A stretch of DNA of 64,000 bases from a virus: IMG/VR virus record IMGVR_UViG_3300015360_000024, positions 96,001 to 160,000 of that record; one strand, written 5' to 3'. The translations under genes and the position numbers were made by a program. Shown here piece by piece: positions 3,843 to 17,141 of this stretch. The notes below the pieces were generated by a model, which saw only the letters and a program-made list of their open reading frames with translations, did not search any database and had not been told where the DNA came from. The stretch's first letter is position 1. Every line of letters starts with the position of its first letter.

Positions 3843-5434
3843 TGAGCAAATCAAAACTACTCGTCGATACGCTGACCTTCAGGGCCACAACCCTGGAGGA
3901 GAGCAAGTCGGGTCCAGGCAAGTTCATTGCCAGGGGTGAGTTCGCTCGTTCGGATCGCGCCACCGAGAACAAGCGTCTCTACCCGGCCACGCTCTGGGAG
4001 CGTGAGATCGGTCGCCTCGCGAAGGCGATGAAGGAAATGAAGGTCTACGGCGAGCTGGACCATCCAATGGATGGACGCACCCAGCTCAAGCGCGTCAGCC
4101 ACATCATTTCCGACCTGCACATGGAAGGCGATGTCGTTGTCGGCACCGCTCACATCCTCGATACCGACGAGGGCCGCAACCTCAAGGCAATCATCGAGGC
4201 CGGTGGTGCAGTTGGTGTTTCGTCTCGTGGGTTCGGCACCACGAAGCCAAATCTCAAGGGCGAAGAAGTCGTTCAGGCGGACTACCGCTTGATGACGTTC
4301 GACTTCGTTGCTGAGCCCGCACAGCAGAGCGCGTACCCAGAAATCAACGTCGAGAGCGCTCCGGCGCCTCGCGCAGTGGAGGCAGCTTCTATGGATGAGA
4401 ACATGACCTGGGAAGAGTTCAAGGCGGCTCATCCGCAGCTTGCCGAGCACTTCACTGACGATGCTGAGCGCGAGTACGAGAAGCGTGCCGCCGAGATCTG
4501 GGCCAAGAAGATCCTTGGCGCCAAGCAGGAGGCGGCTACCAATCTTCGTGGCGAATTCGCCGAGAAGCTTGCGACTGCCGTTGCTGACGCCAAGAAGGAG
4601 ATGGAGAAGGCCGTCACTGAGCGCCTCACCAACGATCCTGCCGTTGCCGGCGCGAAGAAGACGCTTGCCGAGCTGAAGGATCTACTCCGTCCGTGGATCA
4701 TCCCAGCTGACGTTGAGTCGGTCGTCAAGGCGAAGGAAGAGGAAGTTGCGCAGCTGGAGTCCCAGCTGGCCGCCAAGGATCTGGAGATCGCGAATCTCAA
4801 GACCGAAGCCCTCAAGCTCGCCGCCATCGCCAAGGAAGCCGGCTACAGGTATCACCTGGAGCAGCGCCTCAACGACATTGGCCACGCGGACGAGATCCGC
4901 GCCATGGTCGGCGACGTCAAGCAGTTCAAGACCCTCAAGGAGTTGGACAAGCAGATCGTCGTGATCGCTGAGTCCATCATTGCCAGGGATTCCGAGGTCG
5001 CCAAGCGCGACACGGAGATGACTTCCCTCAAGGAAGAGGTTGCTCGCCAGAAGGAAATCGCCGAGAAGGCGCTGGAAGCGACCAAGCACCTCGCAGCCCA
5101 GGTCTACCTGGAGCAGCGCCTCGCAAATCACCCGAACCAGGAGTACGCACGTACCCTGACGGAGGCATCGCGCCCGTCGACCAAGGAAGAGGTCGACTCG
5201 CTGATGACTAAGACCCTGCCGAGGGCTTCGGTAAACGAAGACATCGAGGCCGCTCGCGCGCGAGTTCGTCAGTTGACGAACAGCAACACACGCGAGTATC
5301 TGCAGGAGCAGGAAGAGGGATCCCAGAGAGGCGCCAATAATGGTGCCGCTCGCGATTACAACGGGCTCGGAGCGAATCTCGATGAGATCCGTGCCCTATC
5401 GGGGCTGCCGGACAAGGGCACTCAGAGCAACTAG
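3842..5434 (+). CDS. gp21: Prohead protease (T4 gp21-like) fused to a long coiled-coil scaffold-like domain
   Basis: GELDHP...VSH...GVSSRGFG...FDFVAEPA matches gp21-family catalytic His/Ser motifs; the C-terminal ~350 aa is coiled coil. The track start is GTG 3827; I prefer ATG 3842 because of the TAATG overlap. Confidence 0.9.
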   Translation: MSKSKLLVDTLTFRATTLEESKSGPGKFIARGEFARSDRATENKRLYPATLWEREIGRLAKAMKEMKVYGELDHPMDGRTQLKRVSHIISDLHMEGDVVVGTAHILDTDEGRNLKAIIEAGGAVGVSSRGFGTTKPNLKGEEVVQADYRLMTFDFVAEPAQQSAYPEINVESAPAPRAVEAASMDENMTWEEFKAAHPQLAEHFTDDAEREYEKRAAEIWAKKILGAKQEAATNLRGEFAEKLATAVADAKKEMEKAVTERLTNDPAVAGAKKTLAELKDLLRPWIIPADVESVVKAKEEEVAQLESQLAAKDLEIANLKTEALKLAAIAKEAGYRYHLEQRLNDIGHADEIRAMVGDVKQFKTLKELDKQIVVIAESIIARDSEVAKRDTEMTSLKEEVARQKEIAEKALEATKHLAAQVYLEQRLANHPNQEYARTLTEASRPSTKEEVDSLMTKTLPRASVNEDIEAARARVRQLTNSNTREYLQEQEEGSQRGANNGAARDYNGLGANLDEIRALSGLPDKGTQSN

Positions 5435-8890: not shown

Positions 8891-11206
8891 ATGCCAGGCA
8901 AGCACACCAACAAAGCAAAGCGCTTCAGCAAGCGCGTCAACGAGTCTTCGGCCTGGCTGTTCGCTGGTCCCGGAAACCCCGTGTACATGGGTAACCCAGA
9001 TCCGGTGAGCCAGTTCAACCCAAGCGGCCAGGTGTCGCCAGGTGCGGGCTATATCCCTGACGAGGTCGCCAAGATGCTCGTCAAGGAGAGCGGCCTCAGG
9101 AAGTCCGACACGATCCCCAAGAGGGTCATCGAGAGCTACCTGGAGTCGATGCGGCTATCCAAGGGCCTTGCTGTCGATGTTGCCAGGGTTCTTCGTGACG
9201 TCTACGGCATCACACCGACATTCGACGAATCGTCACTCTACGCCATATCCGGTTCGCTTATTGAGGAGCTGACCGGGGCGATGAACGAGAGCTTCCCGAT
9301 GCCGTTCGCGTTCGATGATGAGCCCAGGATCTTGAACGAGGTCGACCTGGTCGGCTCGTTCATTCAACGCGAGTTCATGGAATCGACGGACGAGAACTAC
9401 GATCTCGTTCTCGGAACCCTGGCGCTGCTCCCTTACCGGGAGTTCTGCGATGTCGTTGACTTCCATGAGTGGGTTGGCGAAGACGCCTTCAACCAGATCG
9501 AAGATCTCGCCATCAATGGTCCAGACGGCATGGCCGAGATGGTGCTCGAAGGCCTCTGCTGGCCGAGTCGCATCAAGCTCATGCCGGAGCATGTCCAGGA
9601 TCTATTCGAGGACGCTGCGGATGACGTCATCAAGGCAGGGACGGCGAAGCTGAAGAGCAGGATGCCGGCGATTCCGCCTGTTCCGAAGGGTGGCCCAGCG
9701 AAGCCTGCTCTTAAGAGCGCTTCCGGTAAGCCAGGGATGAAGATACCAGCGATCAAGGCTAAGCCAACGGTCCCTTCGTTCAAGAAGCAGATGGCCAAAC
9801 ACGGCAAGGATATGGCCAGCGATCCACTTGCTGCCAAGAAGCCTGGCGCTGCCCTCGCGGCACACCGTGAGAAACAGGACAAGGACTGGGATGCCGCGCA
9901 TGCAGCTGCGAAGGCGCGACACGCTGATGAACCCGAGAAGACGGTTCCGAAGGGTAGCCGCCTAAAGAAGGCAGGGACTGCCGCCATCGGCGCGATGAAG
10001 AAGGTCGGCGGCGCCTTCAAGAAGGCCAGCGACTTCCTTCATGCCCCCGGCAAAGCGGTCAGCCACGCAGCGAAGAGCGTCGCTAAGGGCACCGCCAAGG
10101 TTGGCGGTGGACTCGTCACCGGAGCGCTCAAGGCGGTCGGTCACGTTGGCGGTACTCTCGCCAAGGGTGTGGTTGGTGGCTTTACTGGTAAGAGCCACTC
10201 GAATTCTGGTTCGGACCACGACTCCGACGACGGCGACTCGAAACCAGAGAAGAAGAAGGGCCCAGGCGTTCTCGGTCACATCGGCCGGGCTATCGGCAAG
10301 TTTGCTGGTCACGTCAAGAAGGGCTTCAAAGATGCATCTCCTGGCATCGCGCACGTTGCCGGTAGTGGCAAGGAGCCTGAGAAGGCAAAGGAGCCAGAGG
10401 CCGAACCGAAGAAGAAGAAGCGGATGACCACCTCGCAGGTTGGTCAGGAGTCCGTTTATGCGAGCGGATCTCTTATCGGCGAGGTTGAGGCCATGCTTGG
10501 CGGTCAGTCCATCGAGGACGAGACAGAGGAAGAGGAGACAGTTCGTTCACCTGCTGAGGTCGTGGACACGCTGGAAGCTACTTCGGTTGTAGACCAGGCG
10601 GTCTGCGAGGCCCTGTCCGAGATGGACTGGGACGGCGTGGCCAAGATGGCCGGTTTCATGATGCTCGTGCCACAGCGGTTCCTCGGTCTCGTTCAGTCCT
10701 TCAAGGAGGGAACGGACGAGTTCAGGGCTGAGTGGCATGAGCTTGAGGAGAGCGGCTCGAAGCCGAGCTGGATGAACATTGGTTCGTTCGTGACGCTCGC
10801 GAAGCTCTCGCTGGACGAGGGTGTGATCCCGAGGATTGTCTACTTCGCTGGCAAGGCGCTCCAAGCAGCAGACGAGGCCGTGGCCGCACATGTCAACGAG
10901 AGCTATCCGGAGCTTGGTCAGACGGTCTACGGACCGGCAGGAGATCCCAAGGAGGGTCCTCAGCTGGCGAAGTCTTATCTGACCCCTCAGCCGACTGGAA
11001 CGATGACCCCGACCAAGAGTGATTGCACGACGCGGATGTTCTCGGATCCTGCGGACCGCGAGAAGGCACGCAAGGCGAAGCTCTCCGACGTCATGGACGT
11101 TCTCAATGGAATGCGTAGCGCTGCGGCGGCGGCCGGCGTTGCTCCTGAGGGAATGTTCCTGAACCTCTATCGCGACATGCACCGAGAGAAGGTTCGGTAC
11201 AGCTAA
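8891..11206 (+). CDS. 771-aa hypothetical protein with acidic ends and a K/A/G-rich middle; possible internal virion protein
   Basis: Long ORF with SD; no family recognised; many h-x-E-S motifs. Confidence 0.65.
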   Translation: MPGKHTNKAKRFSKRVNESSAWLFAGPGNPVYMGNPDPVSQFNPSGQVSPGAGYIPDEVAKMLVKESGLRKSDTIPKRVIESYLESMRLSKGLAVDVARVLRDVYGITPTFDESSLYAISGSLIEELTGAMNESFPMPFAFDDEPRILNEVDLVGSFIQREFMESTDENYDLVLGTLALLPYREFCDVVDFHEWVGEDAFNQIEDLAINGPDGMAEMVLEGLCWPSRIKLMPEHVQDLFEDAADDVIKAGTAKLKSRMPAIPPVPKGGPAKPALKSASGKPGMKIPAIKAKPTVPSFKKQMAKHGKDMASDPLAAKKPGAALAAHREKQDKDWDAAHAAAKARHADEPEKTVPKGSRLKKAGTAAIGAMKKVGGAFKKASDFLHAPGKAVSHAAKSVAKGTAKVGGGLVTGALKAVGHVGGTLAKGVVGGFTGKSHSNSGSDHDSDDGDSKPEKKKGPGVLGHIGRAIGKFAGHVKKGFKDASPGIAHVAGSGKEPEKAKEPEAEPKKKKRMTTSQVGQESVYASGSLIGEVEAMLGGQSIEDETEEEETVRSPAEVVDTLEATSVVDQAVCEALSEMDWDGVAKMAGFMMLVPQRFLGLVQSFKEGTDEFRAEWHELEESGSKPSWMNIGSFVTLAKLSLDEGVIPRIVYFAGKALQAADEAVAAHVNESYPELGQTVYGPAGDPKEGPQLAKSYLTPQPTGTMTPTKSDCTTRMFSDPADREKARKAKLSDVMDVLNGMRSAAAAAGVAPEGMFLNLYRDMHREKVRYS

Positions 11207-11286
11207 TGGTGATGGATCCGGCCAAGATTGCCGTGGCGGTTTCCAGTGGCCTTAGCATCGTCTGCGCGCTCGATTTATGGATCTGA
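11206..11286 (+). pseudogene. Orphaned original 5' end of the 11815 gene (MVMDPAKIAVAVSSGLSIVCA then LDLWI*)
   Basis: 15/19 aa identical to the N-terminus of ORF 11815; starts by TAATG overlap with the upstream gene. Confidence 0.85.
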
Positions 11287-11874
11287 TACTATGTCCCTTC
11301 AGATGCCATTCAAAAACATCGATGACAAGCGAGCGAATGCTCGTAGGTATTGGGCAGAGAACAAGACTCGTCTGTATGTTGCGCAGAGAGAATACGTAGC
11401 GAAGCGGAATGAGTCAGATCCTGAGTTCAGGAAGCAGACGCTCGATCGTCAGGCGGAATGGGCTCGACGAAATCCAGAAAAGAAAAAGGCCATCCAGGCA
11501 AGGAATGAAGCCAAGAACGGCGAGAGAAACGCAAGAAGCCGTAGAAATGCAAAGCTGAAGCACGATCACGGAATCACCGTGGATGAGTACGAGGCGATTC
11601 TAGAGAATCAGTCTGGTGGATGTGCCATCTGTGGATCTAGGTCAGCCAACAATGGTTCGAGAACCAACCTCTTCGTCGATCACTGCCATGAGACGTCTGC
11701 AGTAAGGGGATTGCTTTGCAATCCGTGCAATCTCGGTCTTGGTAACTTCATGGATAATCCTGAATTACTGATCAAGGCTGCCAACTACGTCGATAAATCA
11801 AGGCGGACGACACCATGATGGATTCAACGAAGATTGCAGCAGCTGTTGCCAGCGGATTGTCGATTGTGTGTGCG
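11269..11874 (+). mobile_element. Endonuclease VII homing-type cassette carrying a recoded replacement 5' end of its target gene
   Basis: Deleting 11269-11874 (606 bp) restores one continuous ORF, ...SGLSIVCA/TCEKYW... Confidence 0.75.
11291..11818 (+). CDS. Recombination endonuclease VII-family (HNH-like) free-standing endonuclease
   Basis: GITVDEYEAILENQSGGCAIC...LFVDHCHETSAVRGLLCNPCNLGLG is the Endonuclease_7 signature; basic helical N-terminus; likely start ATG 11291 (track 11228). Confidence 0.92.
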   Translation: MSLQMPFKNIDDKRANARRYWAENKTRLYVAQREYVAKRNESDPEFRKQTLDRQAEWARRNPEKKKAIQARNEAKNGERNARSRRNAKLKHDHGITVDEYEAILENQSGGCAICGSRSANNGSRTNLFVDHCHETSAVRGLLCNPCNLGLGNFMDNPELLIKAANYVDKSRRTTP

Positions 11875-12231
11875 ACCTGCGAGAAGTACTGGGAAGCAAG
11901 GGACAGGGGAGTCCCTGACGACAGATGTCTCGCGGTAGACGGCTGCGGGTCTCCTATTGCCGGTGACGTGTTCCACGAATATCGCGGGCCGATGACTCAG
12001 TTCGACCAATTCTGCTTTCGTTGTGGAGATCGGGCTACGCATGCGGTGCGCGTGGATAACAGCGTCAGGGTGATCGGCGTCTGTTCGGCTCACGTCGAAA
12101 TGATCAAGACGCTGAAACCTGAAGGCAAACGTGCGCCGAACGTCGTCCTTATCTCCAAGGATGGCGAGAAACAAATCACAGATAAAGACGCCCCGCAGAG
12201 ACGCCAATCTCTCCTCAAGTTGAAGTGGTAA
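11815..12231 (+). CDS. Cys-rich, probably Zn-binding hypothetical protein
   Basis: CATC...C...C...CFRC...CSAH; ATG overlaps the endonuclease stop (ATGA). Confidence 0.75.
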   Translation: MMDSTKIAAAVASGLSIVCATCEKYWEARDRGVPDDRCLAVDGCGSPIAGDVFHEYRGPMTQFDQFCFRCGDRATHAVRVDNSVRVIGVCSAHVEMIKTLKPEGKRAPNVVLISKDGEKQITDKDAPQRRQSLLKLKW

Positions 12232-14315: not shown

Positions 14316-17141
14316 ATGGCCGAGTTTCTCAGCCCAGGCATTTTCATCGAAGAAGTCAACACCAGTGGTCAGCAGGTGGAGGCCGTTGGCACGTCCACCA
14401 TGGCGACTGTTGGGTGGACCGAGCGTGGTCCAGTCGACACCGCAACGGTCGTGACAGGTATCGACGACTTCCAGAGGAAGTTCGGCGAGTACACCAATCA
14501 GTCCCGCGTTCCGATCTCCATCCAGGCGTTCTTCGTCAATAGCGGATCTCGGGCCTACGTCGTGCGTGTTGTCCCGACCGATTCGGTCGAGGGTGAGTCG
14601 TGCATCACGGATCTCGTCTCCGGCGAGACGATTACCGGCGCCGGCACTGGTATTAGCCCGCAGACGATGACCGATACGCTTCTCAACATCCCGGTCTTCA
14701 AGGGCTCGGTTGTCGTCAAGTGGCGGAATAACCCAGCCGGCACGATCGTGGCCGAGAATCCTGTCTTCGCTCCGGCCGAGGGCGAATCGCTGGTTGGTCC
14801 GTTCCTGGCCACGCTGGCCAACACGCCGATCATTGATGGCGCCATTACGATCAACTGGACCGAGGCCATTCAGGCTATCGGCACGCTGACGCTGACTGGT
14901 AACGCTCTTACTACCGAGACGGTCACCATCGGCGCCAAGACGTACACGTTCCAGACCGTTCTTACGAACGTCAATGGCAACGTGCTCATCGGCGGTACGG
15001 CGTCGGGTTCGCTCGATAATCTAATCGCTGCAATCACTCTGGGTACCGGGTCTGGCACCTTGTACGCGGCGGCGACCACGGCTCACCCGACGGTGCTTGC
15101 TGTGGCTGGTGCTGGCGACACAATGATTGCGTACGCGATCCTCGGTGGCGTTGCCGGCAATGCGATCACCACGACGCAGACGCTTACCAACGGCACGTGG
15201 GGCGGCGCGACCCTTGCTGGTGGCCTGGCTGCGGCGGCTCGCACGGCGACGATCACTGGCACGAGTACTCTCGGCGGCGCCAATGCGGCCCGCCTTTCGG
15301 CCGGTAGCATTAACCGTACGACTGGCGCTCTGAGCTTGACGTACGTGACTCGCACGATCGGCACCAATAACGGTCCCGGCACGAACTCCATCACGGTCGA
15401 CTACGATTCGGGTGGCGCTCTCCAGACGGTTACCGACAACGGCGCAGGCGCTTTTGCGGCTACGACAGCTGGCGGTACGACTGTTACTGGAACGATCGAC
15501 TACACCACTGGCGCTCTTTCGATCACGTTCACTGGTGGCACTGATCAGCCATACGCTGGCAATATCCTCGTCGCCGACTACAGGCACTGCCAGTGGGAGA
15601 TGACGGCATCGAACCCCGGTGCGTGGTCTGGTCGTCTGACCATGCGCATTGCTGGCAATGCGAGCTTCTTTACCTACGGCACGCAGGCGACTGCGGGCGT
15701 AGGCGAGTACTCGAAATTCAACGTCCAGGTTCTCCTGGAAAACACGTTGACGGGCGAGGACGAGATCAAGGAGACCTACGAAGAGGTCGTGTTCTCCGAC
15801 GCGGACGACGCGGTCTACTTCCCGAACATCCTGAACGACAATTCGGACTTCATCGAGGTTACGGACTCGGGCACGCTCGACGTTCCGGCGACCTTCAAGG
15901 GCGTTGATCGGAACCAGGTCATGGGGACTGGCGACAGCCTTCTGATGCTGTTTACCGGCACGCTGCTGAACTTCCCGATCGTCAAGACGTCGATTGTGAT
16001 CACGTACACGCCGATCGTCGGCGCGCTGCGTACGCTGGCTGTCGACGTCAACGGCAACATCACGGGCACTGGTCTGGATACGACCAAGACCAACAGCGTC
16101 AACTACACCACTGGTGTGTTCACACTGAACTTCCTCGGTGGCAACGATCGCCCGCTTACGACGACCACCATCGATGCGGCGTACATCTCGATGCCAGCGA
16201 CGTCGTTCGTGGACTACGTGTTCACGGGCGGATCTGACGGCACGCTGACCGGCGTCACGTTCGACCGTGGCGTCTTCACCAGCCCGGTTCTGACGGCATC
16301 CAAGCGTGGCATGTTCGCGCTGAGCCGCATCGACGAGGTGATGCAGCTCATCATCCCGGACTTCGCTGGCGATACCACGGTGGCTGGCGATCAGCTGGAC
16401 TACGCGGAGAGCCGCAAGGACATCTTCGTCATCCTGACCACGCCATCCGGCTTCGAGTCGCAGGAAACCGCTGACTACCGGGCGATCACGTTCAACAGGA
16501 AGTCGAAGTTCTCGGCCATGTACTGGCCGTGGATTAAGGTCACGGATCCGCTGAACTCGGCCAAGACGCTGACGGTCCCACCTCTGGGCTGGGTCGCTGG
16601 CGTGTACGCCCGCACGGATCAGTCGCGCAACGTCGGCAAGGCGCCAGGCGGTACGATCGATGGTGCGCTGCGCTTCCTGACTGGTCTAGAGCTGAAGCCC
16701 GACAAGGGCGACCGCGACCTGGTCTACCCGCTTCGCGTCAACCCATTGATCGACACGACTCAGACGGGTCTGGCGATCTGGGGTGTTCGGACGCTGTCGG
16801 CGACCAACGACGTGCTTCGGTACGTCAACGCGGTTCGTCTGTTCCAGTTCGTGGAGAAGTCGATCTTCAACTCGACGTTCAACTTCGTATTCGAGTCGAT
16901 CACCGCGAACCTGTACGGCCAGCTCAAGAGCGCCTGCGACAGCTTCCTGCTGAATCTCTACACGACAGGCCACTTCGCTGGAGATTCGCCGACCCAGGCG
17001 TTCTTCGTCATCTGCGACGAGACCAACAACCCTCCAGAGGTTGCGAACGCTGGACAGGTCGTCGTGGACATCGGTATTGCTCCCAACCGCCCGGGTGAGT
17101 TCATCCGGTTCCGGTTCAGCCAGAAGACGCTGACGGCGTAG
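14316..17141 (+). CDS. gp18: Contractile tail sheath protein (T4 gp18 family) with large inserted domains
   Basis: N-terminal FLSPGIFIEEV...VGWTERGPVD...FQRKFG; C-terminal WGVRTL...YVNAVRLFQFVEKSI...FVFE, FFVICDETNNPP, IGIAPNRPGEFIRFRF. Confidence 0.96.
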   Translation: MAEFLSPGIFIEEVNTSGQQVEAVGTSTMATVGWTERGPVDTATVVTGIDDFQRKFGEYTNQSRVPISIQAFFVNSGSRAYVVRVVPTDSVEGESCITDLVSGETITGAGTGISPQTMTDTLLNIPVFKGSVVVKWRNNPAGTIVAENPVFAPAEGESLVGPFLATLANTPIIDGAITINWTEAIQAIGTLTLTGNALTTETVTIGAKTYTFQTVLTNVNGNVLIGGTASGSLDNLIAAITLGTGSGTLYAAATTAHPTVLAVAGAGDTMIAYAILGGVAGNAITTTQTLTNGTWGGATLAGGLAAAARTATITGTSTLGGANAARLSAGSINRTTGALSLTYVTRTIGTNNGPGTNSITVDYDSGGALQTVTDNGAGAFAATTAGGTTVTGTIDYTTGALSITFTGGTDQPYAGNILVADYRHCQWEMTASNPGAWSGRLTMRIAGNASFFTYGTQATAGVGEYSKFNVQVLLENTLTGEDEIKETYEEVVFSDADDAVYFPNILNDNSDFIEVTDSGTLDVPATFKGVDRNQVMGTGDSLLMLFTGTLLNFPIVKTSIVITYTPIVGALRTLAVDVNGNITGTGLDTTKTNSVNYTTGVFTLNFLGGNDRPLTTTTIDAAYISMPATSFVDYVFTGGSDGTLTGVTFDRGVFTSPVLTASKRGMFALSRIDEVMQLIIPDFAGDTTVAGDQLDYAESRKDIFVILTTPSGFESQETADYRAITFNRKSKFSAMYWPWIKVTDPLNSAKTLTVPPLGWVAGVYARTDQSRNVGKAPGGTIDGALRFLTGLELKPDKGDRDLVYPLRVNPLIDTTQTGLAIWGVRTLSATNDVLRYVNAVRLFQFVEKSIFNSTFNFVFESITANLYGQLKSACDSFLLNLYTTGHFAGDSPTQAFFVICDETNNPPEVANAGQVVVDIGIAPNRPGEFIRFRFSQKTLTA

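Follow-up and report, generated by a model that had tools for sequence, protein, structure and literature searches.

A splicing-free Endonuclease VII-type cassette that probably homes into a phage gene by replacing its 5′ end

This study examined a free-standing endonuclease gene in the genome of a phage of approximately 194 kb. The gene lies in a 64,000-nucleotide (nt) stretch, hereafter the window, which comprises bases 96001-160000 of the IMG/VR virus record IMGVR_UViG_3300015360_000024 (193,958 bp, rated 91% complete). It encodes an Endonuclease VII-type, DHHRN-like protein and directly precedes a gene for a 138-amino-acid (aa) cysteine-rich protein, the target gene; upstream of the endonuclease is a 26-codon stub that holds the native beginning of this target. 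We interpret positions 11269-11874 as a splicing-free homing cassette that carries a linker, the endonuclease gene, and a foreign version of the first 20 target codons, and we assign this interpretation a probability of approximately 0.85. The architecture, the foreign 5′ end, and the native stub are evident in the window, the layout recurs at the same codon boundary in other phages, and nearly identical genomes occur with and without the element.

The first-pass annotation, which was made from the letters of the window, had drawn attention to the stub, to the ATGA overlap that couples the endonuclease stop codon to the intact gene, and to a difference in codon choice between the two gene starts. 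The analysis recovered all three (Table 1). Among the 19 aligned residues of the stub and the new copy, 15 are identical, and 9 of these 15 are specified by different codons, including all seven of SGLSIVC; these counts were exact, and the overall nucleotide identity is 38/57. Deletion of the cassette (606 nt, 202 codons) joins codon 21 of the stub in frame to ACC TGC, where the residues TCEKYW begin. The stub also shares the codon bias of the genome, as had been claimed: the stub and the upstream gene have GC contents at third codon positions (GC3) of 0.76 and 0.72, compared with 0.50 for the new copy and 0.54 for the endonuclease gene. This contrast is consistent with a foreign new copy, although with only 20 codons it is not decisive by itself. 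The total GC content falls from approximately 0.60 on the left side of the cassette to approximately 0.50 within it and rises to 0.55-0.56 in the genes that follow; the dip to approximately 0.50 spans 11200-11900. The resemblance between the stub and the target family is not due to chance because the stub matches the gene-family profile (E 5e-5) and all 21 of its native residues are identical to the N-terminus of P0002, a close relative of the 138-aa protein.

The target gene was then compared with its relatives, which are designated here by L (loci) and P (proteins) numbers. The 138-aa protein has 76 relatives in a collection of 5.8 billion proteins, and the family alignment yielded 61 viral and 47 metagenome loci that were scanned with an endonuclease profile; allele comparisons were based on the 73 distinct alleles of the target gene. 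The closest protein relatives, P0002 (93% identical) and P0003 (91%), start with the stub residues and continue directly with TCEKYW. In their contigs, L044 and L045, the insert is absent and the target gene starts on the stop codon of the upstream gene. The first-pass annotation had predicted that endonuclease-free phages would carry stub-type codons joined directly to TCEKYW, and L044, L045, and L108 do so. The opposite outcome, in which empty relatives match the downstream codons, was not seen: L044 and L045 each share 51/57 nt with the stub, compared with 42/57 (L044) and 41/57 (L045) for the downstream copy. Over 51 nt, the stub matches the four nearest relatives (L044, L045, L108, and L109) at 45, 45, 42, and 43 positions, and the new copy matches them at 36, 35, 33, and 31. 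The mismatches to L044 number 15/51 in the new copy versus 33/300 in the gene body (Fisher p 0.0014), whereas the 6/51 in the stub represent no excess over the gene body (p 0.81). Identity to L044 returns to approximately 27/30 directly past 11874, and the foreign tract therefore consists of the endonuclease and exactly the duplicated 5′ end. All six nucleotide differences between the stub and L044 are synonymous third-position changes, which suggests that the stub was under protein-level selection for most of the divergence and that the insertion is recent.

Two distant phages, L046 and L064, have this layout at an identical Ala|Thr codon boundary, and they encode the closest relatives of the endonuclease that were identified. 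The closest homolog of the endonuclease in the protein collection, P0078 (48% identical), is encoded in a syntenic module of L046, where a stub ending in NGTSVICA is followed by LGLSIV and a stop codon, the endonuclease gene, and an intact 154-aa homolog of the target that starts VDQTKIRLAVLSGLSLICATC. The native part of this stub ends past the same Ala codon as that of the window. A search for close relatives of the L046 target gene found none. The third case, L064, emerged from the scan with the endonuclease profile; its contig starts inside the stub, and VCATC, a linker, the endonuclease, and the target gene follow. In all three phages, stop and start codons that overlap or lie close together link successive reading frames. 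The linkers of the window (LDLWI and a stop codon, 11269-11286) and of L046 (LGLSIV and a stop codon, 3988-4008) are alike as peptides, although their nucleotide identity is small. In L064, the stub frame has no stop codon before the endonuclease, and a stub-endonuclease fusion is therefore possible.

The strongest comparison was provided by L064, for which near-identical relatives without the endonuclease exist (L076, L077, L078, L080, and L136). Downstream of the junction, L064 is identical to L076 and L080 at 327/330 and 326/330 nt, whereas only 22-23 of the 45 nt before the junction are identical, and perfect identity begins precisely with the ACC (Thr) codon that follows Ala. The stub fragment of L064 matches the native L076 sequence at 14/15 nt; the new copy of L064 differs from it. 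These results upheld the earlier proposal that the element brings a replacement start, and they bear on a reading in which a tandem duplication of the resident 5′ end was followed by divergence of the functional copy at its present location, for instance under selection to escape cutting. The differences between the stub and the new copy are mostly synonymous, as such protein-level selection would leave them. Flanks that are 99% identical around a 5′ end that is 49% identical, however, cannot arise in place and indicate that the 5′ end came with the endonuclease; in the window, moreover, the divergent tract coincides exactly with the duplicated 57 nt and has the lower GC3 of the endonuclease. 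We therefore consider divergence in place highly improbable. Concerning the ends of these contigs, L064 (1-60) terminates inside the stub and L080 (1-75) just upstream of the gene, that is, no more than approximately 70 nt from the insertion site; both may be assembly breaks caused by mixed alleles with and without the endonuclease.

The first-pass annotation had called the new copy synonymously recoded. The codon changes are real, but the copy also carries 4 amino-acid changes and is one codon shorter than the stub, and it is better read as an orthologous 5′ end of foreign origin that moves together with the endonuclease gene; nothing points to a designed recoding. The cassette-borne 5′ end shares 67% nucleotide identity with the stub and 72-74% with close relatives.

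The recurrence also bears on whether the duplicated 5′ end might be a repair accident, left by a one-off illegitimate recombination beside an intergenic endonuclease gene and not part of a mobile unit. Free-standing homing endonuclease genes (HEGs) of phages normally lie between genes, and in one relative, L002, an endonuclease remnant occupies the precise boundary between the genes, accompanied by no more than a 12-bp repeat. The three phages, in contrast, share the order of stub, linker, endonuclease, and new start at one boundary although their target proteins are only approximately 44-47% identical, and their endonucleases form one group: these are 42-47% identical to one another and 35-40% identical to those at a second insertion site described below. 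A single accident thus appears improbable.

The absence of an intron or intein, another claim of the first-pass annotation, was borne out. If the insert were a group I or group II intron, or an intein, its removal from the RNA or the protein would join the stub to TCEKYW; the 606-nt removal is in frame, and many phage HEGs reside in introns. No Rfam family, intron or otherwise, matched at E<=1, however, and the RNA fold at the junction was ordinary in comparison with shuffled controls (z 0.87). An intein is impossible because the stub frame ends in TGA (11284-11286) and the endonuclease lies in another frame, and splicing is unnecessary because the downstream gene has a complete N-terminus and its own ATG. 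Such an explanation has very little to commend it. Ribosomal bypass was considered and rejected: 606 nt is far too long, and a single uninterrupted 138-aa open reading frame (ORF) with its own ATG needs no hop. A scan of the cassette for promoters and terminators yielded none above shuffled controls.

The 175-aa protein matched the Pfam family PF02945 (Endonuclease_7) at E 3.6e-24, above the curated cut-off, and endonuclease VII families of PHROG. Alignment to Hpy99I and T4 Endonuclease VII revealed that CAIC, DHCH, R, and CNPCN are kept; the protein thus has the zinc-binding Cys pairs and the D-H-H...R...N residues of the DHHRN type. Its N-terminal part is basic and predicted to be helical, and the C-terminal part contains the nuclease domain. 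Translation from an alternative in-frame ATG at 11303 would begin MPFKN, similar to the MPY starts of relatives. IMG/VR contains no close relative, the best match being 50% identical across the catalytic domain. Among the 73 distinct alleles of the target gene, 4 have the endonuclease directly upstream, and one of these (L002) has only a 65-aa remnant; the site is empty in L044, L045, L108, L003, and L004, and presence is therefore sporadic. The remnant (L002:4790-4998, the same as L047) is degenerate, lacking the CxxC and DHxH part. It is situated exactly between the stop codon of the upstream gene and the start of the family gene, is flanked by the 12-bp direct repeat ACAGCTRATGCC that duplicates the stop/start overlap, and has an ORF that opens with the target gene's own ATG CC.

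These data speak to whether the gene is simply the phage's own Holliday-junction resolvase, similar to T4 gp49, and not selfish. It belongs to the Endonuclease_7 family and is the only Endonuclease VII gene in this genome. Among related genomes, however, one that is 100% complete has only the 65-aa remnant and two that are 92% and 88% complete have no Endonuclease VII gene, which argues that the endonuclease is not a core resolvase; close relatives also lack it at this locus. Its catalytic domain follows a basic extension and lies at the C-terminus, a placement shared with F-CphI and Hpy99I, whereas that of gp49 is N-terminal, and the GC content of the gene is below that of its flanks. A resident resolvase is therefore scarcely credible.

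A second insertion site of the same endonuclease family lies two genes upstream of the family gene in L134 (540-1075), L065, L127, L062, and L142, and a remnant occurs in L149. Compared with L126 (1490-1530), L094, and L067, which have no endonuclease there, the flanks of L134 are 99.3% (left) and 99.9% (right) identical. The insert follows the stop codon of the upstream gene with a 12-nt repeat (CTCGTCGGRTAG), through which the endonuclease ORF ends on the native LVG-stop. In the endonuclease-bearing allele, the last 9 codons of the upstream gene show 4 nucleotide differences (Met to Ile). The inserts of L065 and L127 have a 273-nt internal deletion. On the sequences at hand, we regard this site as a small 3′-end-replacement version produced by the same endonuclease family.

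The cassette might have arrived as described and since become an immobile fossil, with an inactive or domesticated endonuclease that is inherited vertically. Decay is part of HEG life cycles, and several of the loci above illustrate it: L002 retains a mere 65-aa remnant at the start of its target gene, the second-site copies of L065 and L127 are internally deleted, and decay of the L046 stub has begun. In the window, by contrast, the endonuclease ORF is full length with every catalytic motif present, the purely synonymous differences between the stub and L044 point to a recent insertion, and the L064 lineage includes near-identical genomes with and without the endonuclease. We consider a fossil unlikely, although it is an alternative to be taken seriously.

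Several observations weigh against a recently mobile cassette of foreign origin. The L046 stub has Thr at the invariant Leu of the GLS motif, which suggests that some insertions are old and perhaps no longer mobile. The L064 stub is 6 nt (ACCTGC) longer than those of the window and L046, and the left junction is therefore not strictly identical across all three phages. In a search for the donor, the best match to the new 5′ copy among the 73 alleles was 37/51 nt. The sole other holder of the exact 5′ copy is P0001 (a Logan contig), which has the same arrangement; no holder without window-type flanks was found. Finally, the window phage is only approximately 89% identical to its closest empty relatives and a near-identical pair is limited to L064, so that the recency of the insertion in the window rests on the all-synonymous stub differences. 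A Logan contig of SRR6448207 (39.9 kb), a second sample, repeats this arrangement: it carries a 771-aa gene, a 608-nt gap without a called gene, and a 138-aa gene with the cassette-type N-terminus, whose product differs from that of the window only in the last residue (G for W). Neither the region nor the 138-aa protein was matched in GenBank phages (distant-mode DNA search and tblastn), and a profile scan of genome contigs with the family alignment did not find a prophage copy.

Under the homing interpretation, we infer the following mechanism, in which the cleavage site, the immunity of the new copy, and the translational coupling are deduced from the arrangement of the locus. The enzyme would cleave alleles that lack the endonuclease, at or close to the conserved stretch that encodes GLSxVCA|TC, and the break would be repaired from an endonuclease-bearing genome. 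The left homology arm would consist of the stub and the upstream gene, and the right arm of the gene body; repair would copy in everything between them, and because the arms flank the cassette, the 606-nt unit would be copied as a whole. The old start would stay behind as the 26-codon stub. Because the cassette restarts the gene with its own ATG and N-terminus, the target stays unsplit, neither an intron nor an intein is needed, and the insertion would be harmless. The reconstituted site, composed of the new 5′ end and the native body, is presumed to be uncuttable because its left half has diverged. The chained frames (TAATG; TGA, 4 nt, and ATG; ATGA) suggest that the element probably borrows the translation signals of its target, and the stub probably serves as a leader that brings ribosomes to the endonuclease start. 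More broadly, gene-end replacement may be a general splicing-free means by which homing endonucleases enter phage coding sequence, with one Endonuclease VII-type lineage replacing a 5′ end here and a 3′ end two genes upstream, and with the stranded end acting as both a working left arm and a leader ORF; this generalization is tentative, and we would rate it at somewhat less than even odds. If it is true, the element behaves like an intron that "restarts" rather than splices.

The target gene, presumed essential in the first-pass annotation, is conserved (73 distinct alleles) and belongs to the virion module; further genes of this module lie 3′ of it, with a tail sheath gene at 14316. Its protein has 17 invariant positions, eight of which are Cys and which include G14 and L15 of the GLS motif. 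Comparison with Pfam and PHROG assigned it to no family. The AlphaFold model is confident, with a pLDDT (predicted local distance difference test) score of 79.7, and a fold search with it returned no PDB match and, in BFVD, only one uncharacterised Caudovirales protein; a RING-like identity was rejected, the matches being weak and not credible. The target is a conserved small neck- or tail-module protein that, to judge from its Cys pattern, probably binds zinc. The TAATG overlap at the end of the upstream gene is the same in endonuclease-free relatives, where it involves the start of the intact gene.

Table 1. Features of the cassette locus, in positions of the window
Feature	Position	Strand	Remarks
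Upstream gene, 771 aa	8891-11206	+	TAA overlaps the stub ATG (TAATG)
Orphaned native 5′ end of the target gene, codons 1-21	11206-11268	+	Protein identical to the N-terminus of P0002 (empty site)
Stub ORF, 26 codons	11206-11286	+	21 native codons (...SGLSIVCA), 5 linker codons (LDLWI), and TGA
Putative mobile cassette, 606 nt	11269-11874	+	Linker, endonuclease gene, and replacement 5′ end
Endonuclease gene (free-standing; 175-aa product)	11291-11818	+	ATG 4 nt past the stub TGA
Endonuclease VII (beta-beta-alpha-metal) catalytic domain	11552-11794	+	CxxC, DHxH, and CNxCN motifs intact
Cassette-borne replacement 5′ end, codons 1-20 (MMDSTKIAAAVASGLSIVCA)	11815-11874	+	ATG overlaps the endonuclease stop codon
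Native remainder of the 138-aa Cys-rich gene	11875-12231	+	
Intact target gene, 138 aa	11815-12231	+	ATGA overlap with the endonuclease stop codon

The closest known parallel is provided by mobile endonuclease ORFs (mORFs) of fungal mitochondria, which make gene hybrids in Allomyces macrogynus (atp6), Glomus (atp6, atp9, cox2, and nad3), Rhizopus (atp9), and Mortierella (cox2) (PMC3630166). In both systems, an endonuclease ORF and a duplicated foreign gene piece form one unit, the native remnant is unused, and no splicing is involved. The inserted pieces show 64-81% nucleotide identity in Glomus, and the native pieces match close relatives at 91-98% (PMC3630166), and the window figures are very similar (72-74% for the new and 89% for the native sequence). 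As in mORFs, native and inserted copies of the gene end flank the endonuclease ORF in the window, L046, and L064, and in the window and the L064/L076 pair the native copy goes with close relatives whereas the inserted copy is foreign. The first-pass annotation had named this fungal parallel, which is documented, but the replaced ends differ: mORFs replace the carboxy-terminal end and strand the native 3′ end downstream, whereas the window cassette replaces the 5′ end, strands the native start upstream, and must therefore also supply a start codon. Furthermore, mORFs occur in mitochondria with LAGLIDADG or GIY-YIG enzymes, whereas the present element occurs in a phage with an enzyme of the Endonuclease VII type. 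It thus works like an mORF but lies outside the described set, which comprises carboxy-terminal ends in mitochondrial genomes.

Among phage systems, the MobA element of T4-like phages consists of mobA and the gene 60 bypass cassette (bioRxiv 10.1101/2022.08.31.505936, citing Bonocora et al. 2011). Similar to the window element, it is a phage HEG inside a coding region that is neither an intron nor an intein, a target-homologous stretch (homR) replaces the native cut-site region, and it occupies one position in many clades, with empty relatives that are 96-99% identical. However, MobA deletes 55-75 nt of its target, makes two polypeptides, and needs a ribosomal hop, whereas in the window nothing is deleted, a single polypeptide is made, the native 5′ end is kept as a stub, and translation requires only ordinary initiation; the split target and translational bypass of the MobA/gene 60 type are absent here. 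Homing endonucleases with an Endonuclease VII motif were established by F-CphI, a DHHRN-family enzyme of cyanophage S-PM2 (PMC6083498). Both F-CphI and the window enzyme are encoded by free-standing phage HEGs with the motif at the C-terminal end, a likeness drawn from motif and domain placement. F-CphI, however, lies beside psbA and targets an intron insertion site, its immunity comes from the intron, and the target gene is not duplicated. In the intronless homing of the free-standing Seg and Mob genes of T4, a break in the endonuclease-free genome is repaired from the bearing genome with co-conversion of flanking markers (PMC2988022, PMC2790892, PMC2330249). Unlike the window element, these endonuclease genes are either intergenic or divide a gene into functional halves (Aeh1 nrdA, T4 39/60). 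A review of T4-type mobile elements does not mention duplication (the word "duplicat" is absent). In the literature searched, no phage example of gene-end replacement was found, which is no proof of novelty.

To our knowledge, HEGs are thought to enter coding sequence in three ways only, namely in an intron or intein, by gene splitting, and with the ribosomal hop of MobA, and otherwise to lie between genes. The locus would represent a fourth route into coding sequence, in a phage, in which the element brings along a spare gene start. The comparative evidence for it is clean: near-identical genomes differ in whether the element is present, and three lineages share one codon boundary. The locus links phage HEGs to the mORFs of fungal mitochondria. 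The finding would explain short orphan ORFs beside nuclease genes, which annotation pipelines overlook, and it indicates that short stretches of foreign coding sequence are moved by such cassettes between phages with 99% identity elsewhere. With one small gene and one enzyme, the locus also offers a simple system for investigating target-site immunity, the reach of co-conversion, and stub-driven translation of an endonuclease.

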